A program made the position numbers and the translations under genes. The notes beneath the pieces are model-generated. The model saw only the letters and a list, made by a program, of their open reading frames with translations. It had not been told where the DNA came from and searched no databases. From contig DVLG01000035.1 of assembly GCA_018715625.1 (NCBI GenBank), positions 24,080 through 88,079 of the forward strand: a stretch of DNA of 64,000 nucleotides. Reading direction: 5' to 3'. The first letter of the stretch is position 1. Every line of letters begins with the position of its first letter. This DNA is from Candidatus Scatovivens faecipullorum (GTDB lineage Bacteria > Bacillota > Clostridia > TANB77 > CAG-508). This document shows positions 14,679 to 37,257 of this stretch, piece by piece.

Positions 14679-17600
14679 TTATTTAAGAACTTTTTTCTTA
14701 ATTACTACTATTCCTATTGCAATTACTGCAAGAGCAACAACTACAGCAGCAAGTATTTGTATTGTCATAACTGTTCCTGAATTGATACCTGTTGGAGGAG
14801 TAAATGTTACAAGTTCTGTTGCACTTGAATCTCTTTCTTTAAGAGCTACTTCAAATTCTCCAAGTGTTGGATTTGCATTACCTGGAACTGCAACTATATC
14901 TCTTCTACCAACTGAATTTTCTATTTTAACAATTTCTGCTATATTGTCATAATTTAAGTTATTTGCATCATCTTCTGCAGAAACTGTTTTTGTTATAGTT
15001 AAAACTATTTGAGATTTATAAGCATCTGCATTTTCTTTATATGGTACTAGTTTTGCTTCAAATCCTGAGTTATTCATTTGATCTGTATTTTCTTGTGTAT
15101 CAATACTTAATATTACATTATTTCTTTGGTCTGTGATATATGCAATACCTTTTTTATCAATTAATTCATATTCTGTTGTTATTACATCTGATAATAACTT
15201 ATCTGATCCATATCCACTACCAGTTAACTCTGTAACATTTGTATTTTTCCAGCTATGATCTTTTGCATTATTTAATTCTGCTGAGAATATACCATCATTA
15301 TCAACATAATCTACAATTTGACGAACTCTTGTTGTAACAACTTTATCAGCTCTTACATCATTTGTATAATAAGTTGTTCCTAAATATTCACCTGCTTTTG
15401 AAATTCCTTTGGCAGTATCTTCATAAGCTTTATTTGCAAGAAGTTTAAGAGCTTCTTTTTCTGTTCTAGGTTTAATTCCTGTAAGTTCCTCTACTTTTGT
15501 AAAGTTTTGTTCAGAAATATTTTCTAGTATTTCACTTGTTCTATCAACTTCACCAACATTTAATGCACTAACTTGATAATTAATTTCTATTGTTGTACCT
15601 TGTAATATTGTTTCATCAATATTTACATATCTGAAGTTTTGCATTCCAGAAATTTCCCTATCTGTTGGCTTTTCTTCACATTTATTAATTGCTTGCATTA
15701 CATCTGTTGCAACTGAAGAGTCAGATAATGAAACATCAGCAATTAAATATTTATTTCCTAGTTTAGTTATTATAGTCTTATCTGAAACACCTTCTAATAA
15801 ATCAGTTTCTCTATAATTAATATCATAGATTGCATTAAATATTATGTTTCCATCATTTGTAGTTAATTTAATTGAACTTATTTGTTTATCAAGAACTACT
15901 GCTGTTTCAGGTCTTTCAATTAATCCAAAATCTATGTTGTTAATTAAGTAATTTGTTCCTTCTTTTTGTACTCTAACACTTCCAGCTTCTAATACAGTTC
16001 CTAAAATTTCAGGTTTTTCTTCTACACCTTCGCCAAAGTTTTCTATAAATAAACTTATCTTTGCTGTATCTGCAAACATTGAATAATCATTATATAAATC
16101 AGTATGTTTTTCATCTAATTTATTTGCAGTTGCAAGTACTGTTCCATTTACATTTGTTATAGTTTCTGAATTTGATGTAATTTCAAGTCTTCTAGCTTCA
16201 CTATCTTTTGCATCTGAAACTCTTGCGTTTGCTAAATCAATATTATCTAAATCATGCCATTCATTGTTTACATAACCATTATCATCTACACTTGTAAATC
16301 CTGATTGATAAATTGTAGATCTATAATCTTGACCATTATAAATAGCTGCTGTTTTTCCTTCAAGATCTTTATCATAATTTGCTGTTAAAATATTGTCTTC
16401 ATCAAAACGTTCACCATTTGCTTTATATGCTTCTGGATCTCCAGAAATTTCAAATGTATCTTCTAAATCTAATTTATTGTTTCCATATAAAAATCTTACA
16501 ACATAATCTCCAACTGGAACTGATGTAAATTTATAAGAACCAACACTAGATTCATTTTCTACGTTTTCTCTTGAAGTTTCTGTTGTACTGTCAAAACCTG
16601 TTAGATATTCTAGTGTTTTTCCACCTAAAACATCTAATTGTTTACTTGTTGGCCACAAGAAATCATATTCTCTATCTCCAACTTTTATTTTTTCAACAAG
16701 TTCTGTAGTTAATCCTCCAATTAAAGCTTCATCACCCTCATCATAAAGTCCATTTCCTACTGCTGTATCTCCTTCTGGTTTATCTTCCCAAGCTAAACCA
16801 TTTATTTCTCTATTTTCTTCTACTATTGTTAATTCTAATACTGGTGCTGAATCAGTATCATCTTCATACCATGATTTTTCATTGTAGCTTCTGATGTTTA
16901 CGTTTGCTGGTGCTGAATCTCTATCTATTTTACCTGCGTTTCTACCATCAGTATAACTTGTTGAATAACTTGAAATTTCAGCTACATTTGACTTATCTCC
17001 AAGTCTAATTGTATCTTCAACTCCATCTATATTTTCTTTATCTAATGCAAATGTTACATAAATATCAGCTTTTTCTCCACTTCTTAAGCTTATATCTAAA
17101 TTTTGAGCTGTCATTTTATTATAAGTTACTCCATCAGAACCTTTGATTCCTCTTTCTGTAACATTCCATGTAACATTTTTATTTCCAGATGGTGATTCTA
17201 CATAAGAAGCGTTCGCTACTTCTGTTAATCCATTTTGTTCTGCTCCGTCTATTGTTTTTACATATTTTTCTACTTTTGTATCAATTGGATCTCCAAATGA
17301 ACTATCAAAGTAATCATCAACTGAATTTATTTTAGTAATATAATCTGGTCCTTCATTATATAAACTTATCTTATATGTTAAATAAACATCTAATTCTGTT
17401 GCATCAATACTTGTTCCTAAATCTTTATAGAATTTTTCTATTGCATCATATCCTGTTATATTAGAGTTTGCTTGATACATTTCTGCTCTGTAATAATAAT
17501 CTGTACTGTATAACCCTAATTGATATTCAATTTGAGTTGTGTCTGCATATAATTGTCTACTATAACAATCTGAACCAATATCTTCTAATTTATTAAATTT

Positions 17601-20600
17601 ATAATTTAACAACTTATCATTAACAACTACTTTAGCTGAAACTAAATCCTTAGTTGTTCCTAAATCAACTTCTGGTCTTCTCTTTAATCCTAAATTAATG
17701 TGTAATGTATAATTATAAGTTGCAGAATACATATAATATTGAACTAATCCAAGTTCATTTATATAAGTATCATAGCTTTCTAAATGAATTCTATTATCAA
17801 ATGGATAAGTTAATCCTCCAACTGATGTTCTTGCTTTAGCCTTAAATAAATCTTTTGCAGTTCCATCAGCATTTTGAGTTTGTACTTCTGAAGATATTCT
17901 TGAAGTTCCATTTGCTACTGCAGATTTTGCTCCTTCATAGAAAATGTCTTTTTCTCTTTCACTTTCCACAGCAGTACCTATTGTTTCACCTTCACCATTT
18001 ATTTCTGTTTTTCCTTTAATTTCTTGAATTCTATTATCAACTTCTTCTCTATCATAGTCTAAAGCCATAGAGTCTCTTGCCCAAGCATCTCTTCCTGAAG
18101 TTGAAGCACTTCTATAAGCATTGGCATCTCCATTTGAAGTTGCTAAGAATTTTGTTGGTTCATAAGTTTGACCATCATAAACAAATTCAATATCATAAGT
18201 TCCTGATTTTAATATTTTTACACTTGGAGCTTCCCAATGTCCACCATCTGTTGTAATTATTGGTTGACTAATTTCTTCTCCATCATCATAAATTGTTGCT
18301 AAATTTCCGTTATTATCATAAATATATACTTCAATTCCATCTAATCTTCTTTCATTGTCATCCATTATACCGTTTTCAACAGAATTTTCTGTATTTTTAT
18401 CATTTTCATCAAGTGGTGTATCTTCCCATACATCACCTGCAAGTTTAATTGTTAAATCTATAACTGTTAAAGTTTCTAATCTGTTTGAAACAACTATCTC
18501 TAAGTTATCAGAAATCTCTGCCCCATTATTTGATATGCTAACATTTTTCCAACCTTTTGGAATATTATTTTCAGTTACAGTTACTGTTGGAGCATTATCA
18601 CCCCACCATTTAATTGTTGGTGATGTATATGTTTCTCCACCTTTCAAGCTGATATTAATTACTCTTGTTGAATCAACAACACTTTGTCCATCCATTTCAA
18701 AAGTACCTGAAATTGTAACTGTCATATCAAAACTTGGAAGTTCTAATCCATCTAATAATTTTTCATCAGCAATTATTTCTTTTCTAACTGTAAAGCTTCC
18801 CTCATGCTCTTCATATTTGTTTGTTGCTACAACAGATATTGTTTGACCTTCTGGAGCCAATTTTCCTTCTGCATTATCTATTCTAACTACTTCTGTTCCT
18901 TCTGGAAGATTAATTTCTTCAACTTTATATGAAGGAGCTTCTTCTGTTACATACCATTTAAACATATCTGATTTATATGTTTGATTTGCTTTTATTGTTA
19001 CTATAAATGGCTCATATCCATCTACTGTAACTCTAAATGTAAATTCTTCATCACCAATAACACCATTTTCAACTAATTTTGTTATTTCTAAATATCCACC
19101 TGTTAATTTAGGTTCGTTTATAAATGTTGCTATTGTTGCTTCTGCTCCTGGTTTTATAGTTCCACTAGCATTTAAAACTGATATATTGTTTGCAATTTCT
19201 GATTCTAGCTCTTCTACTGTATAAGTTGGAGCTGAATTTCCATACCATTTAATTGTTCCGGAATCCCACTGACTACCGCCAGAAACTGTTATTTCTTGAG
19301 AAAATTCTTCTCCAGCAGCTTCTCCTGGTCCATATTTTGTTCCATTATATTCAAAAGCACCTCTTATAGTTACTTTGAATTTAAATTCTTGACCATTTAA
19401 ACTTTCATGAGTTACTTGTTTTTTAACGATTAAGTTTCCAGAATTTTCATTTGCTCTATTTACAAATTCATTATCTGTTGTAATTAATATTTCCCCAGTT
19501 TGGCTCTCTTTTAATTTTCCTTGTATACCATTTTCTATTTGTGTTCCGCCATCTGAAGTTGCTGATACAAATTCTGTTCCTTCTGGAAGGTCAATTTCTG
19601 TTATTGTATAGTTTGGAGCTTCCGCATCAGCTGCCCAAGTAAATGCATTTGATGTATATTCCCAAACATAAGAATCACCTTTTTTCTCTGCATTTAATGA
19701 AACCACATAAGGTTCATATCCATCTACTGTAATTTGGAATTTAAATACTAAAGAATTTATATATTCAGTAGACATTCCTTGTGCATTTTCTAGTGTTTTT
19801 ATAATATGAAGATATCCTGCTTTTGGAGTTATGTCTCTATTCCAAGCTGTTACTTTTACTGTGTTTGTACCTTCTGATACATCAGCTAAAGTACCTTTAG
19901 AAGGTTCAACTGATGAAGCAATATCTTCTGCAAGTAAATTCTCTTCTACTGTATATTCTGGAGCCATTTCTCCATTCCATGTAAATTCATCTGAAGTCCA
20001 TACAGTAGGGGCGTCTACACTACTTACTTTTATTACAACAAAACTATTTTCATCATAAATATCGTTTGTTATTTCTACTGCTGAATCATTTGTTAATTGA
20101 ATTTTGGTTCCTGGTCCATAAGTTTGACCTTTATATGTGAAACTTCCTTTAGAAGTTACTGTTACCACAAACTTAAATTCTTTATCAACTAATGTATCTG
20201 AATCTATATGTTTTGTTATTTCAATTCTACCTGAATGAGGTTTTTCTATTCTGTTTACAATGTTATTTGTAACTTCAAAATCTTTTGTTTCATCACTAAC
20301 TAAAGTTCCTGTAATTGTTTGTCCATTTACTGTTATTTGTACATCATCACTTGTTGCTGTAACAAAACTTGTTCCTTCTGGATTATCAACCTCTGTTATT
20401 GTATAATTTGGATTATTTCCAGCAAACCATTCATAATATCCAGATGTATATTCCCAAACATAAGAATTATCTTTTCTTATTGGTGAAATTTCAATTCTTT
20501 GTTTATCATATCCATCCACAGAAATTTCAAAATTAAATTTTAATTTCATTATTTCTTCTTCAGAATATAATTCTGCATTTTCTAATGTCTTTATAATATG

Positions 20601-22922
20601 AATTTTTGCTTTTTCTATTGTTTGCTCATTTATTGCTGTTACTGTTACTGTTTCATCATCAGATAATCTACCTGAACTTGGTGTTATAGAAATTAACTCA
20701 GCAAATTCTGAACTTAACTCTTCAACTTTATATTTAGGAGCTGTTTCTCCATACCATTTAACATTTCCTAAATTCCATTCTCCTCTTCCATTATTAATTG
20801 TAATAGAAGCATCTATGGTAGTTGAAGCATCATTATATTTTTGTCCATTATATTTAAATGTTCCACTTAAAGTTACTTTAAAGTTAAAAGTTTTACCCTC
20901 TAAATTACTTTCTTTTCCATTTAAAATATTTTTATCTATTTTCTTTACGATTTTTAAGTTACCAGTATGCTCTCCAATATTAGTAGCTTTTACCTTTACT
21001 GTTCTTCCATCTCTTAATTCTCCTGAAGCATTTTCAAGGTCTAATTGTTTAAAACCATCTTTGTCAATTTCTTCAACAGTATAAGTTGGATTTCCATTTT
21101 CAACATTCCAATAATATGTTTTAGTAGTTGCTGAACGTCCAGCTTTAACTCTTATTATATCTGAGCCCCCATTTATAGCACCATCTACATTAACTCTGAA
21201 ATAGAAGAATTTGTTTACGTCTTTTACTTCTTCTCCATCTTCATCAACTACTTCTTTTTCTATTCTAATTTTTCCACTTCTAATATCTAATCTTCTATCT
21301 AAATGAGTTGTATTATACCATCTTGCTGCTTTTAATCCACCAGCTAATTGTTGAGAAGTCTTTTCAACTATATCTTTATCCGAATATTCTACCCAATAAT
21401 CAGTTGATTCAACATGTGGTTTATATTGTCCATGTTCACAAGGTGTTCCTCCACTACAGCTATGATGAGATATATTTTCTCCACTACCAGTAGTCCAACT
21501 ATGTGCACCTGTTCTTCCATGTGAACAAGTATGACCATCTGTACACCAATTTTGTTTTTCTTTTGCAGTCCAAGTTACCTCATTATAAGTTCCTCTTAAA
21601 TCTTCATATTGTCCTCCAGCATTCATATACCTAAAGTCAAATGATAGATTTGTTATCTTAGTTAAATTTTCTTTATCTTTTAATGCTATATAAAATACTT
21701 CATTTTCGTGTGGAAACTCATATGTATCATCTAGTTCTCTTTCTCCATCTAGCCATACAAAACTCCAATCAACATTTCTTACTAATGCTTCTTCTGAAGC
21801 ATCAGTATACAATTTTGCATCTGTTATACCTGCAAATTGTACTGCATTTCTACCTTCAACTTGTGCTCCGGCTTCAACATAGTTAATAGAAAAAGGTCCA
21901 ACTTTATATTCACCTAATTCACTATCCCATGTTACTGTTGGAGTATTTAAATCATAATTGTTTGAATTATTAATAGCTTTATATGAATCATTGTCATTAA
22001 AACTAACTTTATATTCTAATTCTGGAGCTTTTACTGTTCCTTTAACACCATTTACTTCAAATTCAGTATCAACAAAATCTGCTGTATTCATAGATTTAGC
22101 TATTCTTGAAATATACGTTTCAAAAGCCCTTGCCTCCTCTGTCAATCCATTTGCTGGAACTGGGTTACTTCCAGCTGCTAAGTTATCTGTATTCCACCAA
22201 GCTCTTTGAACATAAGAATATACGCCCCATCCTTGATCAGTGCTTTCTTCAACATAATAATATTTTCCATCCGTATCTTGTACAACAAGTGTTTCTTTTC
22301 CAACTCCACCTTCAATTACGTAAACTGTCAAATCTCCTGCCGTAGTTGCAGTTGCATTAGCTAATGCTTCTGTGTCGGTAAATTCTATCTTATTACCATG
22401 TTCATCACCTAAGAATTTCAATCCACCATTTTCAAAATTTGGAAGATTATTAATCATTTCAGATAATATATAAGCTTCCATTGGAGTAGCAATTCTTACA
22501 TCATTTACAACATATTTTCCATAAGTCTTATTCATATAAGTACCTTGTTTGAATGGTGTTTCTGTATTTTCTCCTTCAAGGTTTACTTCGAATAATTTTC
22601 CTCCACCGTCTCCTTTTTCAATAGTTCCGGTATAGCTTGGGTCAGAGCTTCCCATTTCTGTTACTAATGTAGCTCCTCCATCTCCTGTTAATGGAGTTCC
22701 ATGAGAAGAACAAAATATTTCATATCTTTGAACTAAATCATTATAAGTTAAATAATCTTCAGCGCCAATTTGACCGTTTGCCATACCTGGTCCTTCTGAT
22801 TCCATCTCATCTGTAATTTCTTGTGCATAAGTTTTATAAATTATAAAGGTGCTTAACAATAATAGTATAATTGCTAAAGCTAATATTAAAATTTTATTAG
22901 AATTTTTTATGATTTTTTTCAT
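14679..22922 (-). CDS. giant surface protein B2 (2747 aa): signal peptide, putative thioester (TED-like) head, Cys/His-rich insert, eight CnaB/SpaA-like domains, SdrD-B-like domains, TPPTG sorting signal plus TM plus KKK tail
   Basis: A single uninterrupted ORF. ATG 22922 (MKKIIKNSNKILILALAIILLLL...AQE) lies 4 nt after the B1 stop, with the GGAGGTG RBS inside the last B1 codons. The GTG at 22934 in the ORF track is part of that RBS. See the findings for motifs. Confidence 0.9.
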   Translation of the reverse strand: MKKIIKNSNKILILALAIILLLLSTFIIYKTYAQEITDEMESEGPGMANGQIGAEDYLTYNDLVQRYEIFCSSHGTPLTGDGGATLVTEMGSSDPSYTGTIEKGDGGGKLFEVNLEGENTETPFKQGTYMNKTYGKYVVNDVRIATPMEAYILSEMINNLPNFENGGLKFLGDEHGNKIEFTDTEALANATATTAGDLTVYVIEGGVGKETLVVQDTDGKYYYVEESTDQGWGVYSYVQRAWWNTDNLAAGSNPVPANGLTEEARAFETYISRIAKSMNTADFVDTEFEVNGVKGTVKAPELEYKVSFNDNDSYKAINNSNNYDLNTPTVTWDSELGEYKVGPFSINYVEAGAQVEGRNAVQFAGITDAKLYTDASEEALVRNVDWSFVWLDGERELDDTYEFPHENEVFYIALKDKENLTKITNLSFDFRYMNAGGQYEDLRGTYNEVTWTAKEKQNWCTDGHTCSHGRTGAHSWTTGSGENISHHSCSGGTPCEHGQYKPHVESTDYWVEYSDKDIVEKTSQQLAGGLKAARWYNTTHLDRRLDIRSGKIRIEKEVVDEDGEEVKDVNKFFYFRVNVDGAINGGSDIIRVKAGRSATTKTYYWNVENGNPTYTVEEIDKDGFKQLDLENASGELRDGRTVKVKATNIGEHTGNLKIVKKIDKNILNGKESNLEGKTFNFKVTLSGTFKYNGQKYNDASTTIDASITINNGRGEWNLGNVKWYGETAPKYKVEELSSEFAELISITPSSGRLSDDETVTVTAINEQTIEKAKIHIIKTLENAELYSEEEIMKLKFNFEISVDGYDKQRIEISPIRKDNSYVWEYTSGYYEWFAGNNPNYTITEVDNPEGTSFVTATSDDVQITVNGQTITGTLVSDETKDFEVTNNIVNRIEKPHSGRIEITKHIDSDTLVDKEFKFVVTVTSKGSFTYKGQTYGPGTKIQLTNDSAVEITNDIYDENSFVVIKVSSVDAPTVWTSDEFTWNGEMAPEYTVEENLLAEDIASSVEPSKGTLADVSEGTNTVKVTAWNRDITPKAGYLHIIKTLENAQGMSTEYINSLVFKFQITVDGYEPYVVSLNAEKKGDSYVWEYTSNAFTWAADAEAPNYTITEIDLPEGTEFVSATSDGGTQIENGIQGKLKESQTGEILITTDNEFVNRANENSGNLIVKKQVTHESLNGQEFKFKVTIRGAFEYNGTKYGPGEAAGEEFSQEITVSGGSQWDSGTIKWYGNSAPTYTVEELESEIANNISVLNASGTIKPGAEATIATFINEPKLTGGYLEITKLVENGVIGDEEFTFRVTVDGYEPFIVTIKANQTYKSDMFKWYVTEEAPSYKVEEINLPEGTEVVRIDNAEGKLAPEGQTISVVATNKYEEHEGSFTVRKEIIADEKLLDGLELPSFDMTVTISGTFEMDGQSVVDSTRVINISLKGGETYTSPTIKWWGDNAPTVTVTENNIPKGWKNVSISNNGAEISDNLEIVVSNRLETLTVIDLTIKLAGDVWEDTPLDENDKNTENSVENGIMDDNERRLDGIEVYIYDNNGNLATIYDDGEEISQPIITTDGGHWEAPSVKILKSGTYDIEFVYDGQTYEPTKFLATSNGDANAYRSASTSGRDAWARDSMALDYDREEVDNRIQEIKGKTEINGEGETIGTAVESEREKDIFYEGAKSAVANGTSRISSEVQTQNADGTAKDLFKAKARTSVGGLTYPFDNRIHLESYDTYINELGLVQYYMYSATYNYTLHINLGLKRRPEVDLGTTKDLVSAKVVVNDKLLNYKFNKLEDIGSDCYSRQLYADTTQIEYQLGLYSTDYYYRAEMYQANSNITGYDAIEKFYKDLGTSIDATELDVYLTYKISLYNEGPDYITKINSVDDYFDSSFGDPIDTKVEKYVKTIDGAEQNGLTEVANASYVESPSGNKNVTWNVTERGIKGSDGVTYNKMTAQNLDISLRSGEKADIYVTFALDKENIDGVEDTIRLGDKSNVAEISSYSTSYTDGRNAGKIDRDSAPANVNIRSYNEKSWYEDDTDSAPVLELTIVEENREINGLAWEDKPEGDTAVGNGLYDEGDEALIGGLTTELVEKIKVGDREYDFLWPTSKQLDVLGGKTLEYLTGFDSTTETSRENVENESSVGSYKFTSVPVGDYVVRFLYGNNKLDLEDTFEISGDPEAYKANGERFDEDNILTANYDKDLEGKTAAIYNGQDYRSTIYQSGFTSVDDNGYVNNEWHDLDNIDLANARVSDAKDSEARRLEITSNSETITNVNGTVLATANKLDEKHTDLYNDYSMFADTAKISLFIENFGEGVEEKPEILGTVLEAGSVRVQKEGTNYLINNIDFGLIERPETAVVLDKQISSIKLTTNDGNIIFNAIYDINYRETDLLEGVSDKTIITKLGNKYLIADVSLSDSSVATDVMQAINKCEEKPTDREISGMQNFRYVNIDETILQGTTIEINYQVSALNVGEVDRTSEILENISEQNFTKVEELTGIKPRTEKEALKLLANKAYEDTAKGISKAGEYLGTTYYTNDVRADKVVTTRVRQIVDYVDNDGIFSAELNNAKDHSWKNTNVTELTGSGYGSDKLLSDVITTEYELIDKKGIAYITDQRNNVILSIDTQENTDQMNNSGFEAKLVPYKENADAYKSQIVLTITKTVSAEDDANNLNYDNIAEIVKIENSVGRRDIVAVPGNANPTLGEFEVALKERDSSATELVTFTPPTGINSGTVMTIQILAAVVVALAVIAIGIVVIKKKVLK

Positions 22923-22926
22923 ATCA

Positions 22927-25900
22927 TTAAACACCTCCTTTTCTCTTTGCTAATACAATTTTATTATATGCTATAAATATTACTATACTTCCTAATAATA
23001 TTGTTGTTATAATTACTGAAATATATATGAATGTTTCACCAGTTTTTGCAGAAATAATTACGTCTGCTGAACCTATATCATTTTCACCTTGTGCTTTATT
23101 TGCTGGTGTTGAGTTAATATCTGAAATACCATATATATTGTAATCTTCATAAATTTCTGCTAGGTTGTTAGTAAGTCCTATATTTTCTTCTGTTACTTGT
23201 TTTGTTAAAACTAATTTAACAGATGCTGACTCACCAGGTTTTAATTCTCTTTCTGCAAGTTCTGCTGAATATAGATTTCCATCAGATCCTGTATACCAGC
23301 TTGCATTTGCTTCTAATCCAGAATTAAATGTCATTCCTTCTGGCATATAATCTATAATTTGTTTTGCATATCCTGCCACATCACCTTCATTTGATACTGT
23401 AATTGTATATTCTACATATACAACAGATCCATATAAATGTTTAGCAGCAATTTCTGTTTTGGCTAATGTTACATTATCATATTCATCATTTTGAGTTCCT
23501 GTAGCAGATTGTGTTGTTACTTTAGTTATAGTTTTGTCTAATTTTAAATCAAATTTATCTGCTAAAACTAAACCAATATCTATGCCAGATGTACTACCAT
23601 TTGAAATAGTGATAACTTCTGTAATAGCACCATTTCTTGTTTTACCATCTTGTTCTAATTTTGTTGTTACAGCATCTGAGTTAACATTTATATCTACTCC
23701 GTCTTTTTTATAAGCTGTAACTGTATATTTTACTGTATCATACTCAAAAATTACTAAGTAGTCTCCATTTTTTACTCCTGAAAATGTGTATGAACCATTT
23801 GCATCTGTTGTTACAGACGTTTGAATTGCACCAGATTGACTATCAACTAATCTAACAATTATTCCTGATAATAATTGCTCATCTGTTGTTCTCATACCAT
23901 CTTTATTACTATCAAGCCAAGCTGTACCTGTTAATTTATATGTTTTTTCAATATTACTACTTCCATAAGAATTATTAGAACTTGAAGATGATTGTAATGA
24001 GCTTGCAACAAAAGATTTTCCAGCATTTTCTATTATATGAGTAATTTCATTAGTTTTTTGTGGCTCATTATTTTCTGCAGTTACTGTAGCAGTATTAGTA
24101 ACTGTTTTTTCTTGAACACCATTTAAGACACTTGCTACTGCCTGAACAGTTACTAATACTTCAGTATTTGGATTAATAGCTAAATCTACTAAAGCTTGAT
24201 CATTTGCTGAAATATTTTTCTTATTTACTACTCCATCAATTGTATAACTTATACTTTTTATATTTAAACCATCTGGAATTTCATCTACTAATCTAACTTG
24301 TTTTGCTTTTACACTACCTTCATTTTTTATAGAAAAAATATATTCAATAACTTCTCCTTCTTTTACATATGTTTCTGTAGTTGATGTAGTTTGAGATACA
24401 CTAATTAAAGGAACTCCTATACTAATCGGTACATTATTTGAAGTATATGTATCGGTATCTTGTGCTTTTACATTTGTATAATTATCTAATGTTGTCTCAA
24501 TTTTGCCTTCCTGTAATTTATTTCCTTTTATAACATAACTTAAGTCTGCATATCCATTAACTTCTAATGTCCCTATATTCCATGTAATAGTTCTTGTTGA
24601 AGCATCATAACCTACATTTTCTAAATTGCCATTCATATCAGCTGAAATAAATTCTAATTCTTCTGGTAAAACTTTAGTAGCTACTACATTATTTTGAACT
24701 TTAGAAGAAGTATTTGCAATTGAAATGCCAAACTCAAATTCATTTCCTAATGGTTGAGTTGCAGACGTAAAAGCAACATCTCTAGAATATTCTTTAATAT
24801 AAAATTCAGATTCTTTTAAATTAATGTATTTTTTCTCTGTCTGTAACTCAACATCTAAATCTTTTGCAGTTACACTAGAAAAAATTTCTATTTTTACATC
24901 TGGAATAGAGGTAATTTCAGTATCTTTATATCCAATTACTTCTCCAGTATCTTCACTATTTTCTATTTCTTCTAATGTCTTATCATATTTTCTAATTACG
25001 TATATTCCATCTTCTCTTTGGAAAAAGCCTTCTGTTCCTGCATAATATTGTTCTATAGTTGGTAATTCTTTTGCTGACAAAGTAATTTCTATTTCTGTGT
25101 TTTCGTCTTTTTCTAATCCTGGAACATTAGCTACTATATTTCCGTTTATTTCTTCTATTTTCACATCTTCTTTTTCACAATAAGCATTTTTATAAATTGT
25201 AAAATTTGGAACTGGCGTAGTTACTATTATATTCTCAGCTCTATTTTCCCCAATATTTGAAACTTTAACTTCTACTTTAAATTCCTCTTCAACTTTTACT
25301 GTTTCTTTATCTAATGAAACTTCTAAGTTTAATTCAGGTCCTTCTCCAGTTGTTAAACCAATTTTATCAGGAGTTGCTTTTTCGTCAGTTTTTGCTATTT
25401 CTGAATTATTTGTATAATATGCTAAAAATGTTCCATAGATATTTTCATTATGAGTTAAATTTGCAGGAATTTCATATTGATATGTAAATCTTAAAATTGC
25501 TGTTTCTTGCATTTCATAATTTTCATCTTGAGGTACTATTAAGTATGATTTTATATTTTCAAAACTTGTTGGGTTCATTGTCCAACCATTTTCTGAATTA
25601 TTTAAATCATTATTTGCTTCTCCATTTTCAGAATAGTAAATATTAAATGCTACTCCATTTCTTTCATCAGAAACTATAGGACCAATTAGTTTTGTATCTA
25701 ATGTTGTACCTAAGTCTTCTCCTGTTTCTATATCTTTTACTCCTTTAAAAGGAATTCTACCTAATATAGATACATCTGAAACTGTATTTTCATTGTTGTT
25801 CATTACAACAATTTCCATTGTTGCAGCTTTTGCTTCTGAATAAATATCAATTAAATCTTCTTTTACACCTTGTCTTACAGATGTTGTAATTGAACCTACT

Positions 25901-28953: not shown

Positions 28954-31900
28954 TTATTTATAACGTCTCTTTTTGATTTTTGTAATTGTTACTTTTGTTA
29001 CAATTACTACTAAAGCTACTACGGCTACTACGATTGCTACTACTATTATACTTGTTCTTGCTGTCTCAACTGTATTAACAATCATTCTTCTATTTCTCAT
29101 TAAACCTGTTGGAGGTGTTAATGTAATTGTTTCTGTTGCTGCAGTATCTGATTCAAAAGATGCTGTTACAAATTCCTCGCTACCAATTTCTGGTTTATCT
29201 TGTGCTGCTTCCATGTTAACATCAGCATTACCAATTGTTGTAGCAAAGTTTGTTCTTCTACCTGTTAATGTTGTAAATTGTATAATCTCTGCCATGTTTT
29301 CATAAGTCATATCTTCTGTATCTGCTTCTGCTGATACTACTTTAGATACTGGTAAGTATACTGTACCCATAGAATAATGATAATTTGTAGTATCTGGATC
29401 TGTTACTTTTGGTAATAAGAATCTTGCCAAATCTACGTTATTTACTTGATATTTATCTTGAGCTTCTTCAATATTTGTTTGAACATTTCTTGAATACTCA
29501 TCATCTCTGATTCTATCATCAACTGATACAACTAGGTTCTTATATTCTATGCCTTTAGTATTTGTTAGTTTAACATTAGTTGTAATATCTTCTCCTATAG
29601 CATAATTTTCAGTTGTCTCATTGTTTGTATTTTGTTCATCTGTTTTATTTTCTTCTTTATTGTTATTTCCTTCAACAAGGTCTCTTACTGCTAATACATG
29701 ATTTACTAATTCTGATGTTGTACTTCTTCTCCAGTACTTACTTAATAATTTATCATCACTTGTTTCTTGTTCAAACTCTAGGTCTGTGTCAACATAGTCT
29801 AATATCTTATCAAATTTCAAGCTTGCAATTGTATCTAAGTTAGTATCTTTTCCAGTATAATATGCATATCCTACATATCTACCAAAATATCCACCGTCTC
29901 CTGCTGGCTTATTATTTGCATCAGTTTCATTAGTAATTGTTTTCTTCATGTTTCTGTATAAATCTTTATTTTCATCTAGTGCATAAGTATCTGCATAAAT
30001 AATATTTCTTGCTGTTCCTGAAGCTGTATAATCTTTATCTATAATATTTACACCTTTACCATTATATGCATTGATTAAATTAATTGTTGCATCATTTTCT
30101 TTATATCTGATATCATCAAGATTTTCTGTGATTCTATCTACCTCACTATTGTTTTGTGCTTTAAATTTATAAGTAATTTCTATTTTAGATCCTTGTAAAA
30201 TATCATCATCTATTTGTAAGTAAACAAATCCTTGAAGTTCTTCTGTTGCAAGTCCTGATAGTAGGGCTGTATAATCATTTGAAATGAATTGTACTAAGTC
30301 AAGTCCTACTGATTTTTCCATATCTAAGTGGTGAGTTGCATGTTCGCCTTCACCCTCTGTATAGAAGAATAAGTCAGCTAATGTTTCTCCATCTTCTGTT
30401 GTTATCTTCATTTCATCAATTTCTTTTAATAAGCTTATTTGTGATTCAGGTCTATATTCAACACCAAAGTCTACGTTTTCAATCTTGAAGTCCCTAGCAT
30501 TGTTGTCTGCATATTGCATAGCTTCTAGTTCTTTATAGTAAATTTCATTTGCTAAATCTTCAGCTGTACCATTTCCTAAATCAACATTTGTTCTTACAAT
30601 ATATTTTGATGTTTGCTCTTGTGTTAATTTCTCAGTTTTTACTAAGAATTCAACTGTTTCAGCATTCATATATGTGTTTTCTGTTAATGCTTTTAATTGA
30701 TCCACATCATTTGCTCTAGATATTGGTGTCATTTCTTCAATTCCATTTGCAACACCTTTTAGAATTTCTGCAAGTTCGTTTGTCATAACTTCTGAGAATC
30801 TATTAACTTCTAGTCTTCTAATTTCATCATCTCTAGCATCTGATTTGTTTACAACCTCTAATTGTTTAATTATTTCATCAACATCTGTTTCTGTATCACT
30901 TAAATCTGTTGTATATTTTGTTGATTTATAATCTTGACCATTAAAGATTAACATATCTTTTTGAGCTTCAATATCTGGGTTATATGTTGTAGAATTTTTG
31001 TTTTCTTCAACTGTATCACCATAAGTAAATCTTACAACATATCTACCTGGAACAAATCCTTCAAGTTCATAATTACCATCTGTATCTGTTCTTGTATGTT
31101 GAACTTGCTTCCATGTAACATCACTTAAGATTTCTTCATAATAATGAATTTGATTATTATTATTTGCATCTTTTGCATAGTTACCGTTTTCATCACGTAC
31201 TGGAATATCAACAATTTCAACAAATTCTGCTCTTGCACTTCTAACTTTAATATCCTTTTCTTCTGTTTCTGAACCATCTTTGTAGTTAATTTCTACGTTT
31301 TGATTCATTTTGCCATCATTGTTTTTCTGCTTATCAGGATTATAGTTACCATCACCAATATATTGTGTTTCTCCAGCTTCTCCTAAAGTTTCTGTTCTAG
31401 AATCATCCCAAACCATACCAGAAATACTTCTTCTAATATCTGGTGTATTCTGAACTTCTACAATAATGTTATTTTTACTGTATTTTTCTGTTATTATTTC
31501 TTTTGTATTTACTGTTGCATCTGCAACAAGTTCAATACCTGTTTTATATGTCATATCTTCATAGTAGTCTATATTATCTGCAGAGGTTTCGCTTTCAGCA
31601 TATCCTCCACTTCCAGGAATTACTCCTGTGCTATCATTTTTGATACCAATGTTACCAGCATTTGAGTCCATATCTACAAGTGAAGTTGGTTTTCCATCTG
31701 TGTACCAAACTGAGTAAGCATTAACTTGTGCAATGTTTTCTGTACCTCTACCGAATTTATTTTTGAAATCTGTTGCTACATTTTCAGCTATTTTTAAAGA
31801 TCTCTCTAAAGTTGTTGTTTTTGTAGTAGTTGTTGAACCACTTTCTTCTCCTGTTGTTATTGATCCATTTTCTTTTTCTTCAGTATTAGAACTTGCACTT

Positions 31901-34900
31901 GATGTTGAAGATTTTGTTTCTTCATAATTTTCATTTGTAATACCTACTTCTAAAGCTTCTTTATCAAGTACATATTTAACATAAATATCTAAATCTTCTC
32001 CTTCATGGATAATCTCATTCTCCATACCTCTAATATATACTGTGTTATATCCATCAGCTTCAAAGTTATTTTTCTTTTCAGAATATGTACCTAAAGCTCC
32101 TCTTGAAGAAATATTTGATAATGTTAAATCAATTTTTACATAATTTCCTGCAGGATCTTCTTTATAAATTGGTTTTGCTCCTGCTGCTACTTCTGTAGGA
32201 TTTTCAATACTATATTTTGTTCCATTTGCAGCATCTCCTGCTTCGCTTGCTTCTTTAAAGTACCAAGCCTCAGCAATCTTAATTGGTTTATCAACTAAGA
32301 AGCCATTATCATCTTTATTTTTTACAACTACTGTATTTGGAGATCCAACTGTTGGATTTGGAACACTTACCATATTTCCATTTTCATCAAATTGTATTTG
32401 AACAAAGTTCTTGTCATATATGTCTAGAATTTCATGTATCTTAACATCTAGTTTAGTATCAGTTACAGGAGGATTTTTACCTTCATAATTTACAGTATCA
32501 TCATCAGTAACTGCTTTATTATCAACTGTTATTCTATATGTTACCTCAACATTTAATTCACTCTCACCATTTATACCTTTATACTCTCTAACTGCTTGTG
32601 CTTTATATTGCTCAAATCTGTATTTATAGTCAGATTCATATAACTCTAAACCATAAGGTTTTGAAATTATATAATTTTGTAAATATGGATTTTGATCTGT
32701 AGCTTCCATATCACCATTTAAACCATTGTTTTGGTTGTAGTTGTATTCCATTTCTTCACCATCAATAGTTGTTTTTACTTTATAAACATCTTTTGTTAAT
32801 GCAATATCAACATCTTCTCTTAACTCTAAACCTAAATTGATGTGTTTTAAGTATTCAGTTTCTGGTTTTTCATTATTTTGAGCTCCTCCAAATGGATATA
32901 ACCATAAGTAGTTAGTTGAATTTGCATCATTTTTATTTGAAGGAACATTTATAAAGCTTCTTGCTGTCATTAATCTTGAGTTATCTTCCATTAATTGTGA
33001 AGTGTGTTCAGTCTTATCAAAAACTAATTCATTAGTTTTATTAAATCCTAAATCATAAGCTACATTATATGAAATGTATTCATATTTTGTATTAAATTGT
33101 TCTCTTACATCTGTAAATTCAGCTGCATTAGAATCAATCAAATATTCTTGTTCAAAGCTTCCATCATCTTTTAGATGTTTCTTACCATCTGTTCCAGCAT
33201 AGAATTCTGTACTCTTATATATAACACCATCATATTCGTATTCTATATAATAACTTACATATTTACTATTTGCTGTGTAGTTTCCATTTGCATCTTTATT
33301 GTCAGCTTTGTCAACACGTTGATATGTTGTATTTAATGAGAATCCTGTGTCATGATTATATGTACCATACCAGTTTAAGTTCTCATCTCTACCAAATGTA
33401 TATAAACCATTTTGGTCTGTTTTGGTTGTTCTTAATAATGTACCATCTGATTTATAAAGATGAACAATTACATCTTTCTTTCTAGCATCTTGGTTAACAT
33501 TATAGTATGCTTGTTTTGTAGCATCAACATCTTTGTCTGTCATAAATCCATCTCTATCAAAGTCTACCCAAACATTACCTGCAATTACTAAGTCTTTCAT
33601 TCTTACGTATTCTTTTGTTTCTTCTTGTTTAGAAATGTTTTCATCATGATTTGGATTTCTAACTTCTCTATTATTATCATCTGTATGGTTAATGTTAGTT
33701 AGTATTGTTAAGTCAGCTCTGTTCTCTAAATCATATAAATACATATTGCTTTCTGTAACTTCTACAGTTACATAGTAAATAATGTATTCACCTGGATTTA
33801 AGATTGTTTCATTTCCAATAGTGTATTCATATTTGTTGTAATTTCTTCCGTTTTCACTAATTGCTGATGGAGCTGAAACATTAACATTCACTTTTCCATC
33901 ACCATTATATCTTGTACAAACACTACCATCACTATTATACATTACAGCTTCAACAGATTTTTGAGTTAAACCAACCTCCATTTTATCTGTAACTTTAGTT
34001 GTTCTAACTTGAGTTGCTGGTTTTGTACCAGAACTTAAAGATTTATTAACTGTTGTTGCTTCATTTGTAATCTTAATAGCATATACAATTGTTTCATATT
34101 TTTCAACTGAAACTGGATGTTCTTTCTTATAAGTGTCTTTGTTATTTGGTTCTCTCACTCTATCATTTACATTTCCATCAGATAAAGTACTATATTGTTT
34201 ACTGTCATTCATTCTTGAAGTTTTTAAAGTACCATCATTATTTGTAATTATACCATTATTTGTAAATGAATTGTTATTGTTTTCTTTTTGTATTTTTTCA
34301 TCATAAGTATAAATGTATTTATCAACAAATGTGTTATAGTTATTTATTTTGTAATAATCTTTTGTTTCTGTTCTTATTGGGTTATTTTTAATAACATCAT
34401 ATTTATCATCAACTGTTGAAGTCTGTGCTGTTCCTCTATTGATGTTTCTCATTTCTCCAATAAATTTAACACTATTTGTTTCAACAGTTCCTTTTGTATA
34501 TTCATCTACTGTTAAAGTAACTGTTATTGTTCTAGTACCATTTGCTGGAATCATCAAGTTTTTAATTGTGAATTTTCCACCATTTGTACTACTATCAGTC
34601 TTAGATATTGTATAAGATTTGTTTCCTGGTATTGTTGTACCACTTACAGTAATATCTAAGTTAGAATATTTTTTAGGTAATGTATCTTCTATATCTACAT
34701 AAACCTTATCTGGTTTCCAATATGGAGCATTATTATAATCTATCTTAGAGTCATATTTATTTGTTGTATTATAAACTATTATCTTATATGTAATAGTATC
34801 TCCATATTCTGCGTATACTGGATTAGCTTTTTTAGCATCTTCTGTTACACCTTTTGTTATAGATCTTTGATCTGTTGCTTTTAAGGTTGTATCTATACTG

Positions 34901-37257
34901 CTAATTCCAATATTGTCTTGATTATGTTCTACATCATAAATATATTTTTCAATATTTACATTGTACTCTTTAATCTCATAAGTATCTGAATCTTTTTCTT
35001 TCAAATTAGTTGTGTTATCATTAGCGTCTGTATTTACCATACTACCATATCGGTGTGCACCATGAGTAGAATTTTCTCCCCATATAACATACTGCATGTG
35101 TTCACTTGATGTATTGGTTGTAATAAATTCTATTGTATTTGTATAAACTCCCTCTGGTCGAGTTGGTCTAACTTTAATTTCATAAACATTTTTATTATGA
35201 GGTGCTACTTCTATCCATTGACTATATTTTATACTATCTGGCATTTCCTCCAGAGAACAATCTACCAAATTAGCATAAACTGGCTCACAACCTTCTGGTA
35301 AAACATCTTTTACTTTTACTCTAGTTGGGAATCTTGAATCATTTATAATTTCTATAGTATAAGTAACTAAATCTCCTCTTTCTACTTTTACTGGATTATT
35401 ACGTTTTTGATCCATTGTCCAATCTCTTCTTTGGTTTCCTGAAAAAATATTTCCTATTTCTCCAACATGATCAACACTTGTAATATATTTATATATTGTC
35501 ATTTGTGTTTTTAATGGAACTGCAACACGAATTGTATATTCCATTTGTTCTGATGAAAGTAAACCTGCTCCTGAAAATGCGTCTTGTGCGTAGTCTCCTC
35601 CATTAGTTGGTTCATTCCATGTAAAGTCCCAACAATCTTCATGACGATGTCCACATAAATATGTGCAATAGTGACTAGTTGAATCAGTCCCACCACATGC
35701 ATGATGATCTCCTGGACAACTGTATGATGGTGGATCTCCTCCATCAGATTCGCAACCTCCACAAGAATATGTATAGCAATTTACGCACCATGTATGTGTA
35801 CAGGTTCCAGTCCAAGGACTATCCGTGCTTCCAGGTGATCTACTTTTATGATGGCTGCCACCTAATCCCGGATCTGGACAACTATATGAACAACCTGATT
35901 GACTTGTTGAAGAATAACCGTTAAAGTTTATGGCTTCTTGTAGTCCTTCATACCATGTTCCTGCACCAGATGCATGTATTTTTTGATATGTAAATCTAAT
36001 ATCTAATAATTCATCATATCCATTAATTGCTGCTGAGCTAAAATCAATATAAAATTCTGAACCTGGTTCTGGAACAGGAAATTCTATTGTTTTAGTTTGT
36101 CCACTTTCATTTGTTAATATAGCTTCAGCTTTAATAATTGTTCCTCTTAAATCTGAGTCTGATCCGTTTCTTCCTTGAGTATTTGTAAATTCTGTTTGAA
36201 GATTTTTTGCATTAGCAGAATTACTTGGAGTATATTTTTCATAACGATCATCATCTACTAATACATAATGTGCTTTTTCACTATCGCTTAAAGCCTCATA
36301 TTCAGCTTTAGTTATACTTGTTACTGTATAAGAGTCTAAACTAAATGAATAATTTTCAGCTCTCACATAATTACTCATTTTAAACGGACCAACTTTATAT
36401 GTACTATTTGAAACTGTTGCTCCAACATTATCTTCTGGTTTAACATCTACATTAGGATTTTTTGAATCCTCATGATATTTATCAAATATTTGGGCTGCAC
36501 CTAATAATGGATTCGTCTCTCCTGGTTTTAATTGTCCAAGCCAAGACCATAATGCATGTTGTAATGGATCTGATGTATATCCTGTACTTGCTCTTTCTCC
36601 ATCTGATTGTTTATACCTTGCAAGTAAGAAAGCCATAGCTCCATCTGAAAAATCTCCTTTTCCTTGTCTTACACCAATATTAGCTTTTCTAGTTTCACAA
36701 TCAAAGGCAACATTATGAGGAATATATACCCAGTTTGTATATACAGTATCTGCAGGAGTTTCTGTAGATTCTCTATATCCATCATAAACACTTAAATTTT
36801 TTTGTATTGAACCATTTTGATCTAAATATATTGGAGCGCTTGTATCAATATCTAAATATGGAATTTCTGCTTCATTTTTTGTTGAAGCACTATCTACTTT
36901 ATGTTTTGTTATTGTATGTGTTTTATGATAAGCACTTCCTAGTATAGTATTTCTTTTAGCTCCATACGCCGTTCCATGCTGAGCACAGAAATAGTCTGCA
37001 GAACTATTAAATACAGCTCCATTTACAGGAAAAGTTTCTATTCTTTTATATCCTGGTGCTTTATACGAATATGCTTTTGTAATTTTTTTATTTACAATTC
37101 CTAATCCAACAGGACTTCCGCTAATAGTACTTCCAAATTCTGTTTGTAATGAATCAACATTAGCACCTATTGTTGTAGGTATAAATAAATATCCAAGTCC
37201 TAATAATACTAAACCTATTATTAACATTGTTAATACATATTTTATTTTTTCTCTCAT
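28954..37257 (-). CDS. giant surface protein A2 (2767 aa): signal/anchor peptide, putative thioester (TED-like) head, 12-Cys/8-His insert, multiple beta-sandwich and SdrD-B-like domains, S/T-rich linker, TPPTG sorting signal plus TM plus basic tail
   Basis: A single uninterrupted ORF. ATG 37257 lies 12 nt after the A1 stop, with a GGAGGTG RBS in the gap. It is a paralogue of B2, sharing the YKVGPF...NYV motif, the Cys/His insert position, VW(x)D SdrD-B-like units and the TPPTG tail. Confidence 0.9.
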   Translation of the reverse strand: MREKIKYVLTMLIIGLVLLGLGYLFIPTTIGANVDSLQTEFGSTISGSPVGLGIVNKKITKAYSYKAPGYKRIETFPVNGAVFNSSADYFCAQHGTAYGAKRNTILGSAYHKTHTITKHKVDSASTKNEAEIPYLDIDTSAPIYLDQNGSIQKNLSVYDGYRESTETPADTVYTNWVYIPHNVAFDCETRKANIGVRQGKGDFSDGAMAFLLARYKQSDGERASTGYTSDPLQHALWSWLGQLKPGETNPLLGAAQIFDKYHEDSKNPNVDVKPEDNVGATVSNSTYKVGPFKMSNYVRAENYSFSLDSYTVTSITKAEYEALSDSEKAHYVLVDDDRYEKYTPSNSANAKNLQTEFTNTQGRNGSDSDLRGTIIKAEAILTNESGQTKTIEFPVPEPGSEFYIDFSSAAINGYDELLDIRFTYQKIHASGAGTWYEGLQEAINFNGYSSTSQSGCSYSCPDPGLGGSHHKSRSPGSTDSPWTGTCTHTWCVNCYTYSCGGCESDGGDPPSYSCPGDHHACGGTDSTSHYCTYLCGHRHEDCWDFTWNEPTNGGDYAQDAFSGAGLLSSEQMEYTIRVAVPLKTQMTIYKYITSVDHVGEIGNIFSGNQRRDWTMDQKRNNPVKVERGDLVTYTIEIINDSRFPTRVKVKDVLPEGCEPVYANLVDCSLEEMPDSIKYSQWIEVAPHNKNVYEIKVRPTRPEGVYTNTIEFITTNTSSEHMQYVIWGENSTHGAHRYGSMVNTDANDNTTNLKEKDSDTYEIKEYNVNIEKYIYDVEHNQDNIGISSIDTTLKATDQRSITKGVTEDAKKANPVYAEYGDTITYKIIVYNTTNKYDSKIDYNNAPYWKPDKVYVDIEDTLPKKYSNLDITVSGTTIPGNKSYTISKTDSSTNGGKFTIKNLMIPANGTRTITVTLTVDEYTKGTVETNSVKFIGEMRNINRGTAQTSTVDDKYDVIKNNPIRTETKDYYKINNYNTFVDKYIYTYDEKIQKENNNNSFTNNGIITNNDGTLKTSRMNDSKQYSTLSDGNVNDRVREPNNKDTYKKEHPVSVEKYETIVYAIKITNEATTVNKSLSSGTKPATQVRTTKVTDKMEVGLTQKSVEAVMYNSDGSVCTRYNGDGKVNVNVSAPSAISENGRNYNKYEYTIGNETILNPGEYIIYYVTVEVTESNMYLYDLENRADLTILTNINHTDDNNREVRNPNHDENISKQEETKEYVRMKDLVIAGNVWVDFDRDGFMTDKDVDATKQAYYNVNQDARKKDVIVHLYKSDGTLLRTTKTDQNGLYTFGRDENLNWYGTYNHDTGFSLNTTYQRVDKADNKDANGNYTANSKYVSYYIEYEYDGVIYKSTEFYAGTDGKKHLKDDGSFEQEYLIDSNAAEFTDVREQFNTKYEYISYNVAYDLGFNKTNELVFDKTEHTSQLMEDNSRLMTARSFINVPSNKNDANSTNYLWLYPFGGAQNNEKPETEYLKHINLGLELREDVDIALTKDVYKVKTTIDGEEMEYNYNQNNGLNGDMEATDQNPYLQNYIISKPYGLELYESDYKYRFEQYKAQAVREYKGINGESELNVEVTYRITVDNKAVTDDDTVNYEGKNPPVTDTKLDVKIHEILDIYDKNFVQIQFDENGNMVSVPNPTVGSPNTVVVKNKDDNGFLVDKPIKIAEAWYFKEASEAGDAANGTKYSIENPTEVAAGAKPIYKEDPAGNYVKIDLTLSNISSRGALGTYSEKKNNFEADGYNTVYIRGMENEIIHEGEDLDIYVKYVLDKEALEVGITNENYEETKSSTSSASSNTEEKENGSITTGEESGSTTTTKTTTLERSLKIAENVATDFKNKFGRGTENIAQVNAYSVWYTDGKPTSLVDMDSNAGNIGIKNDSTGVIPGSGGYAESETSADNIDYYEDMTYKTGIELVADATVNTKEIITEKYSKNNIIVEVQNTPDIRRSISGMVWDDSRTETLGEAGETQYIGDGNYNPDKQKNNDGKMNQNVEINYKDGSETEEKDIKVRSARAEFVEIVDIPVRDENGNYAKDANNNNQIHYYEEILSDVTWKQVQHTRTDTDGNYELEGFVPGRYVVRFTYGDTVEENKNSTTYNPDIEAQKDMLIFNGQDYKSTKYTTDLSDTETDVDEIIKQLEVVNKSDARDDEIRRLEVNRFSEVMTNELAEILKGVANGIEEMTPISRANDVDQLKALTENTYMNAETVEFLVKTEKLTQEQTSKYIVRTNVDLGNGTAEDLANEIYYKELEAMQYADNNARDFKIENVDFGVEYRPESQISLLKEIDEMKITTEDGETLADLFFYTEGEGEHATHHLDMEKSVGLDLVQFISNDYTALLSGLATEELQGFVYLQIDDDILQGSKIEITYKFKAQNNSEVDRITENLDDIRYKENDATINLINAYNGKGVNIIDKDYTASGTARNIIYADTYALDENKDLYRNMKKTITNETDANNKPAGDGGYFGRYVGYAYYTGKDTNLDTIASLKFDKILDYVDTDLEFEQETSDDKLLSKYWRRSTTSELVNHVLAVRDLVEGNNNKEENKTDEQNTNNETTENYAIGEDITTNVKLTNTKGIEYKNLVVSVDDRIRDDEYSRNVQTNIEEAQDKYQVNNVDLARFLLPKVTDPDTTNYHYSMGTVYLPVSKVVSAEADTEDMTYENMAEIIQFTTLTGRRTNFATTIGNADVNMEAAQDKPEIGSEEFVTASFESDTAATETITLTPPTGLMRNRRMIVNTVETARTSIIVVAIVVAVVALVVIVTKVTITKIKKRRYK

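Follow-up and report, generated by a model that had tools for sequence, protein, structure and literature searches.

The window analysed here is a stretch of 64,000 nucleotides from Candidatus Scatovivens faecipullorum (contig DVLG01000035.1 of assembly GCA_018715625.1, positions 24,080 to 88,079 of the forward strand). Its minus strand encodes a giant surface protein, A2, whose head region carries an insert dense in Cys and His at residues 456-542, and it is this insert, together with the beta domain that hosts it, that we examine below. The features concerned are collected in Table 1, which includes a smaller cluster in B2, a paralogous giant protein encoded in the same array.

Table 1 Features of A2 and B2 discussed in the text, in window coordinates; pLDDT is the predicted local distance difference test score of AlphaFold2 (AF2) models, and fractions give conservation among aligned homologues
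Feature	Coordinates	Strand	Evidence and remarks
A2 gene	28954..37257	-	Open reading frame (ORF) and translation; 2767-aa giant fibrillar surface protein, predicted exported
Thioester-like head signature, F-C91-A-Q-H-G and L-Q233-H-A-L-W	36559..36987	-	Conserved columns
Host beta domain, A2 residues 405-612	35422..36045	-	AF2; strands 416-436 and 560-581 (21-22 residues, unusually long) bracket the insert
Cys/His-rich insert, A2 residues 456-542	35632..35892	-	12 Cys and 8 His in 87 residues
N-terminal clamp, C456-S-Y-S-C460 (C-x3-C)	35878..35892	-	C456 38/47, C460 44/47; pLDDT ~82
C486-T-H488-T-W-C491-V-N-C494, C-x-H...C on a predicted beta-hairpin	35776..35802	-	C486 40/47, H488 37/47, C494 38/47
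Exchangeable centre, residues 495-531	35665..35775	-	Block replacement among proteins 93-97% identical overall; C499, C502, C514, H518, H519, C521, H529 and C531 in this allele
C-terminal clamp, C535-G-H537-R-H539-E-D-C542 (C-x-H-x-H-x2-C), nearly invariant	35632..35655	-	C535 47/47, H537 46/47, H539 45/47, C542 46/47
CLIPPER (DUF11) CnaA-like domain, A2 residues 618-713	35119..35406	-	PF01345; C-terminal to the host beta domain
TPPTG pentapeptide, sorting-type signal at the A2 C-terminus	29104..29118	-	Sequence; non-canonical pentapeptide
Mini Cys/His cluster of B2 (gene 14679-22934), residues 464-507	21414..21545	-	4 Cys and 7 His in 44 residues

Composition of the Cys/His-rich segment

The segment reads CSYSCPDPGLGGSHHKSRSPGSTDSPWTGTCTHTWCVNCYTYSCGGCESDGGDPPSYSCPGDHHACGGTDSTSHYCTYLCGHRHEDC, starting with CSYSC and ending with CGHRHEDC. 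A recount agreed exactly with the Cys and His numbers given in an initial annotation of this DNA, whose quoted string also took in G455 and W543 (89 letters), and its description of an otherwise Cys-poor giant surface protein is borne out as well, with 5 Cys and 32 His in the 2680 residues outside the segment from protein totals of 17 and 40. Cys and His together account for 23% of the segment and 1.4% of the other A2 residues. The richness in Gly, Ser, Thr and Pro that had been pointed out is likewise real (48% against 25% in the remainder of A2), and aliphatic residues plus Phe contribute 3.4% as compared to 22.9% elsewhere in the protein. Since Cys and His make up 1.05% and 1.15% of residues, respectively, in ORFs of at least 100 aa in this 1.88-Mb genome, the chance of finding at least 20 of them in 87 residues is 4e-15 for any one stretch of that length and ~2e-9 genome-wide. 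The A2 segment has the highest Cys/His density among the real genes of the genome and is exceeded by just three spurious repeat-frame ORFs. Among Firmicutes, dense Cys as such is less out of the ordinary in anaerobes than in aerobes (PMC2823432); of the rarity attributed to dense Cys/His clusters in secreted proteins of Gram-positive anaerobes, it is density in combination with His that stands out.

Local guanine-cytosine (GC) content is raised in the segment, as had been reported, to 0.39-0.45 from ~0.27-0.33 in the surroundings. The rise lies in the second codon position (0.68 versus 0.35), third-position GC remaining low (0.17 versus 0.12), and the amino-acid composition combined with the gene's own codon usage predicts a GC content of 0.41, the observed value being 0.437. 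The rise is thus due to the residues encoded, and foreign DNA is ruled out as its source by the low third-position GC. The two overlapping ORFs reported here (35511-35762 on the minus strand and 35679-35924 on the plus strand) do exist, and the GC or composition explanation suffices for them. An assembly artefact is also ruled out, because six database proteins, on at least 25 contigs from independent assemblies, contain the 12-Cys segment without a single change.

Conserved ends, exchangeable centre and distribution

In alignments of homologues the insert is flanked by two conserved strands of the form ...D-I-x-F-T-Y-Q-R-I-H-A-x-G-x-G-T-x-Y... and ...F-x-W...A-Q-D-G-F-A-G.... Conservation of potential ligand positions was counted over 47 aligned homologues, and ranges of length and of Cys and His content over 44 distinct inserts. 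Both ends of the insert are conserved (Table 1), and the C-terminal C-x-H-x-H-x2-C is also found in distant relatives recovered by profile search; position 541, adjacent to C542, is acidic (D or E) in 27 of the 47 homologues. The group at C486-C494 maps to a hairpin with predicted strands at A2 residues 483-492 and 495-497 (pLDDT ~84), in which C491 varies among homologues, unlike the neighbouring C486, H488 and C494. Within the centre, C502 is shared by 36/47 and H519 by 35/47. Four insert positions are nearly invariant and about seven further ones are kept at 75-94% across proteins down to 25-30% identity. The conserved C-x3-C, C-x-H and C-x-H-x-H-x2-C spacings are candidate parts of four-ligand Zn sites. 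Conservation of the Cys/His positions, which the initial annotation had treated as decisive, is therefore found for the core (C460, C535, H537, H539 and C542) and gives way to variation in the centre.

The extent of this variation is considerable, distinct inserts ranging from 36 to 176 residues with 4-19 Cys and 3-19 His. Against a protein 90% identical to A2 overall, the segment shows 47% identity while its 90-residue flanks show 96-98%, so that it ranks with one other spot as the most divergent part of A2 in that comparison. At the DNA level, comparison with a human-gut metagenome-assembled genome yields 97-100% identity on both sides and 38-55% across residues ~445-530; this collapse between near-identical flanks cannot be explained by point mutation and indicates that a block was replaced. 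Among proteins 89-97% identical to A2, all members of 90%-identity clusters, at least three discrete alleles circulate within a single species: the 12-Cys type of the window, which is the one shared by the six database proteins mentioned above; a 7-Cys type, the commonest among the listed cluster members; and a second 7-Cys type, present in two proteins with overall identities to A2 of 89% and 95%. The 7-Cys alleles recur with few substitutions at most. C499, C502, C514 and C521 are missing from both of them, as is C531 from the commoner one, which means that the count of 12 Cys and 8 His is not in itself a conserved property. The centre of the window's allele contributes an extra C-x2-C and Cys/His knuckles and scores best against proteins with just 42-49% flank identity; these scores are inflated by compositional bias, and the match suggests old or exchanged cassette types. 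A compensated frameshift was ruled out as the origin of the other alleles, given that the other two reading frames of the segment are stop-rich and bear no resemblance to the 7-Cys allele. No silent cassettes that could serve for switching were found, the genome having a single match to the region.

A search with A2 residues 280-720 recovered 51 proteins of 1585-3388 aa, and in all but three of them the densest Cys stretch lies at the equivalent site. A profile of the host domain, run against 1.84 billion cluster representatives, retrieved just 38 proteins at E ≤ 0.001, nearly all of them giant and with a Cys/His cluster at the equivalent site. About 50 homologues of 2400-3900 aa are known to have the cluster there. 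The relatives are encoded by uncultured Clostridia from the guts of humans, mice and water deer. Of 24 further species in the window's genus, 8 have the host domain; among 200 genomes sampled from the order's other genera, including 77 of the same family, it was found in none. Within the genomes searched, the family is restricted to the window's own genus. The insert is therefore a hypervariable allelic cassette, exchanged as a block between strains with almost identical flanks, and the Cys/His cluster is a hallmark of the A2-type family. This pairing, which the initial annotation had not seen, is the most informative property of the segment.

Host protein, predicted structure and genomic setting

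The host beta domain contains the invariant residues D415, E416, F422, Y424, Q425, Q558 and D559. An AF2 model of residues 270-725, built from 26 aligned homologues, is all-beta with a mean pLDDT of 79.7 and places hairpins in the insert at residues ~483-497 and ~518-532. Modelled alone, residues 405-612 reach a mean pLDDT of 72.8, with 80-88 at the conserved ends of the insert and 45-60 in its centre (~495-515). The profile and structure searches that had been proposed for the segment were run and returned no Pfam, PDB or BFVD match. Foldseek gave no match at E ≤ 1e-3 for the 456- and 208-residue models against PDB or for the larger model against BFVD; its sub-threshold matches were taken as noise, being generic immunoglobulin-like (Ig-like) sandwiches together with, when the domain was searched in isolation, pore or tail proteins with long beta-hairpins at a probability below 0.11. 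Single-sequence and profile searches of PDB sequences found no match, and a Pfam scan at E ≤ 10 of the 719-aa head, a 167-aa region and nine isolated inserts produced no meaningful family for the insert. The CxxCH haem motif is absent from A2 and occurs in one of 43 distinct inserts, in disagreement with a c-type cytochrome. No description of a comparable insert was found in the literature searched.

From its N-terminus, A2 comprises a signal or transmembrane segment, a thioester-like head, the Cys/His insert, a stalk of CLIPPER/DUF11 and SdrD_B type and a C-terminal tail. It has the features of an exported protein, with a hydrophobic segment at the N-terminus and, at the C-terminus, TPPTG followed by a transmembrane helix and a basic tail (KKRRYK). 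The stalk matches are borderline (SdrD_B, PF17210, 8.7e-07 and 29.6 bits versus a cut-off of 29.7; CLIPPER/DUF11, PF01345, 2.8e-05 and 24.9 bits versus 24.6), and the Pfam scan also matched CarboxypepD_reg; the two borderline domains together with the all-beta AF2 model give A2 the Ig-like stalk of fibrillar adhesins. CLIPPER domains, as described in fibrillar adhesins (10.1101/2025.04.25.650565), are isopeptide domains similar to CnaA. In A2, K618, D651 and N707 are invariant in the alignment of 26 homologues and form a candidate Lys-Asn isopeptide triad in which the Asp would act as catalyst. The Cys/Gln pair of the head is strongly conserved among A2-type homologues, with the second motif as L-Q233-H-A-[VI]-W (C91 45/46, Q233 46/46, W237 46/46), and no thioester-domain model matched the head in the Pfam scan of its 719 residues or in the PDB sequence search. 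The placement of the cluster next to a putative thioester head is therefore only roughly right: Cys91 and Gln233 lie more than 220 residues upstream, a beta domain intervenes and models do not recognise the head. A second hypervariable spot of A2, at residues ~2480-2560 (window 29600-29820), is an N/E/K/T-rich low-complexity tract near the C-terminal anchor, with 20-35% identity to proteins that are 60-90% identical overall.

A2 belongs to an array of giant genes arranged as two tandem pairs, A1-A2 and B1-B2, which spans window positions 14679-43248 (~28.5 kb, or ~1.5% of the genome) and encodes proteins of 1992, 2767, 1838 and 2751 aa, respectively. The array is bordered by minC/PBP2/mreCD on one side and spoIIE on the other, and the order mreD-PBP2-minC-A1-A2-B1-B2 is kept around a homologue of merely 49% identity. 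There are no sortase genes in the window and nine sortase-family genes elsewhere in the genome (contigs C5, C18, C31, C34, C38, C45, C64, C65 and C79), an observation that bears on the non-canonical sorting motifs TPPTG, LVSTG and SAKTG of the four giant proteins. Contig C34 also carries a 409-aa minus-strand ORF with an acidic His-rich tract (…EEKNGHHHHHHHNHD…), which ranks second among real genes by His density and is possibly a metallochaperone-type protein.

The mini-cluster of B2 lies about as far from the N-terminus as the A2 insert does. Among 66 B2-type homologues a similar Cys/His cluster is present in just three (P0086, P0149 and P0150), the others having a short acidic Cys-free loop or none, and the B2 mini-cluster may reflect convergent gain, or transfer with an A2-type gene as donor. 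BLASTP and hhalign suggest, through weak alignments, that the A2 and B2 loops occupy equivalent positions. If the two host domains are equivalent, the prevalence of short loops in B2-type proteins would mean that the site tolerates them and that the domain can fold without the insert, which would make the latter an accessory module.

Metal coordination and its alternatives

The Cys and His of the insert probably coordinate metal, with Zn as the default guess. Of the options put forward in the initial annotation, a metal-binding module agrees best with the evidence, all of it indirect, a disulfide knot is disfavoured and nothing supports a redox or metal sensor. We accordingly favour, as the likeliest account, a metal-stapled mini-domain that is hypervariable and defines the family, and of which the segment would be the allele present in this strain; it would project from a loop of the head-region beta domain of a sortase-type adhesin. 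Cys and His replace each other in shared alignment columns, at 469 (C 15, H 6), 499 (C 15, H 7), 521 (H 10, with C in A2) and 529 (H 31, C 8), a behaviour that fits metal ligands and not disulfides. His is enriched in the inserts to a degree that matches Cys (10.3% and 12.1%). Pairs of Cys/His residues are depleted at i+1 (74 observed versus 189 expected) and enriched at i+2 (248 versus 187) and at i+4, and the i/i+2 enrichment is the pattern of ligands on one face of a beta-strand. The near-absence of aliphatic residues, in turn, implies that something besides a hydrophobic core must hold the hairpins.

A disulfide-knotted module, with paired Cys rigidifying the loop and His merely incidental, would account for dense Cys and a scant hydrophobic core in the manner of small disulfide-rich domains, and the Cys count of the window's allele, 12, is even. 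DsbA or VKOR is present in some Clostridia (PMC12453122), and one CLIPPER domain of solved structure contains a CTTC disulfide (10.1101/2025.04.25.650565). Yet odd Cys counts are about as frequent as even ones over the 44 distinct inserts (24 even, 20 odd), the number of Cys per insert runs from 4 to 19, the sister alleles have 7, and Cys gives way to His in several columns; pairing would also leave unexplained why His is enriched like Cys and nearly invariant in C-x-H-x-H-x2-C. The organism is a gut anaerobe, and no DsbA, DsbB, VKOR or Thioredoxin_4 was found in its 97%-complete genome by searches that detected positive controls in reference genomes. Cys-free proteins make up 33% of exported proteins in anaerobic and 70% in aerobic Firmicutes (PMC2823432), and this weaker avoidance of Cys fits thiols that stay reduced outside the cell. 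We consequently regard a disulfide knot as improbable. Free thiols of another kind are invoked if the Cys form mixed disulfides or covalent links with Cys-rich mucins or other targets and thereby complement a thioester warhead. The location in the head region, the Cys/Gln thioester-like pair retained at the N-terminus and the odd Cys counts, which would leave unpaired thiols, speak for such reactive-thiol adhesion, but the invariant His would have no role in it, the i/i+2 pattern fits chelation and no precedent was found in the literature searched; its probability is very low.

Metal could also be bound without a defined fold, the insert acting as a cell-surface sponge that captures Zn, Ni, Fe or Cu or buffers their supply, in the manner of streptococcal Pht proteins or storage proteins rich in His and Cys, while its sequence drifts and ligand density alone matters. 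Ligand density is indeed kept at 20-25% despite changing length and order, long variants repeat E-H-x-H and C-x-C-x-G-H units, and the surface Zn-binding Pht proteins offer a precedent (PMC3842936). However, phtD shares an operon with adcAII, whereas no metal transporter lies beside the A2-type genes in the window or at the syntenic homologue locus; the HxxHxH triad occurs in just 3 of 43 inserts; a single copy per 2767-aa protein is an expensive store for few ions; and discrete alleles preserved letter for letter, together with the AF2 hairpins, favour a defined fold over disorder. We deem a sponge unlikely. A neutral low-complexity spacer shaped by slippage or drift would be in keeping with the extreme range of lengths (36-176 residues), the bias towards G, S and T, and the plain low complexity of the second hypervariable spot of A2, but such a spacer should not preserve four nearly invariant positions and about seven at 75-94% down to 25-30% identity, nor stable and discrete alleles. 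The alleles show no obvious internal repeats on inspection by eye, and Cys and His are the rarest residues of the proteome, at ~1% each. A neutral origin thus appears most improbable.

Several observations weigh against a metal-stapled mini-domain. No zinc-finger, zinc-ribbon, metallothionein or other Pfam model matches the insert, the top score being that of zf-RING_5 (E 0.55-5.6, 7-11 bits versus a cut-off of 27.9). Relatedness among the sequences inflates the z-scores of the spacing test, and disulfides could form spontaneously upon exposure to oxygen or through an unrecognised oxidase. The alignments that bear on equivalence of the A2 and B2 loops are weak (BLASTP E 0.014; hhalign of the host-domain profiles, 43 columns at 9.6% probability), and we infer a role in recognition or evasion from hypervariability and position alone.

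In the metal-stapled mini-domain that we favour, the conserved basal Cys and His would coordinate one or two ions of a metal, Zn2+ being the most probable and Fe, Ni and Cu also possible, and these ions would tie both ends of the insert together beside the host beta sheet. The C-x2-C, C-x-C-x-G-H and H-x-H knuckles of the centre would add metal sites, and the 12-Cys allele would exceed the 7-Cys alleles by approximately one or two of them. With metal cross-links in place of a hydrophobic core, the exposed sequence would be free to vary while the insert stays compact and protease-resistant in the reducing gut lumen, and the variable surface at the tip of the adhesin may serve target recognition or escape from antibodies or phages. 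It is the combination of conserved clamps, a block-exchanged centre, discrete maintained alleles and a position in the adhesin head that leads us to read the insert as a display scaffold.

With respect to known systems, A2 resembles the TIE-type (thioester, isopeptide, ester domain) fibrillar adhesins of Gram-positive bacteria, among them class II thioester-domain adhesins (PMC6194298, PMC8092201, PMC4450167), in its giant size, its export, the Cys...Q-x-A-[VI]-W pair conserved in the head, an Ig-like stalk (CLIPPER/DUF11 and SdrD_B) and a C-terminal sortase-type signal. It differs from them in that its head is unmatched by any thioester-domain model or structure, its sorting motif is TPPTG instead of LPxTG, and the hypervariable Cys/His-rich insert is found in no TIE protein described in the literature searched. 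We class the insert as a novel hypervariable domain, rich in Cys and His, that is inserted into a fibrillar adhesin of TIE type. Bacterial metallothioneins (SmtA/BmtA) and zinc-ribbon or zinc-knuckle modules are likewise small Cys/His-rich units that lack a hydrophobic core and fold around Zn, and C-x-C-x-G-H, which we take to resemble the SmtA motif, recurs in the inserts along with C-x2-C. Metallothioneins are nevertheless small and cytosolic, whereas the A2 insert is part of an extracellular protein of 2767 aa, adjacent CC pairs are strongly depleted and none of nine inserts matched a profile at E ≤ 10; the insert does not belong among them. In the G5-E "zinc zipper" of staphylococcal SasG/Aap, Zn bridges two molecules via His/Asp of repeated stalk domains. 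The likeness lies in the use of a metal ion, proposed for A2, by a Gram-positive fibrillar surface protein, and the difference in the single Cys/His-rich insert that A2 has near its head. Pht proteins (PMC3842936, PMC3603884) are surface-exposed Firmicutes proteins whose repeated His motifs bind Zn2+, but they use no Cys, their HxxHxH motif is as rare in A2-type inserts as noted above, pht is linked to a Zn transporter that A2-type loci lack, and no Pfam match connects the two, which sets A2 outside this group.

The nearest parallel in principle is offered by the Giardia variant-specific surface proteins (VSPs; PMC2996952, PMC6341118), which are Cys-rich, Zn-associated, protease-resistant and variable surface modules of the oxygen-poor intestine that vary on a conserved Cys scaffold; A2 shares these traits, metal association and protease resistance being proposed in its case. 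VSPs are eukaryotic and unrelated in sequence; they contain many CXXC, as against 0-3 C-x2-C per A2-type insert, where His is as frequent as Cys; and A2-type variation is allelic between strains, with one genomic copy and no switching of expression within a gene family found. By analogy, the insert might be a bacterial counterpart of the VSP principle: a metal-stapled scaffold at the tip of a covalent, thioester-type adhesin of a commensal gut Firmicute, carrying allelic cassettes within and between species for strain-specific recognition or for escape from immunoglobulin A (IgA) or phages, and representing a new class of extracellular metal knuckles possible only in anoxia. We put this forward as a tentative proposal that is rather unlikely to hold in full.

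For annotation, C-x-H-x-H-x2-C plus the flanking F-T-Y-Q-R-I-H and A-Q-D-G-F-A-G strands mark a genus-restricted family of giant adhesins. A metal-stapled exported domain, if confirmed as such, would be one for which the libraries searched hold neither a profile nor a solved structure, and it would imply that strict anaerobes could cross-link their extracellular proteins through metal bound by Cys and His, in places where aerobes rely on disulfides or isopeptides. The insert could act as a compact display scaffold for variable loops, and its clamps and cassette-like centre provide a natural system for the study of strain-level surface variation in uncultured gut Clostridia.

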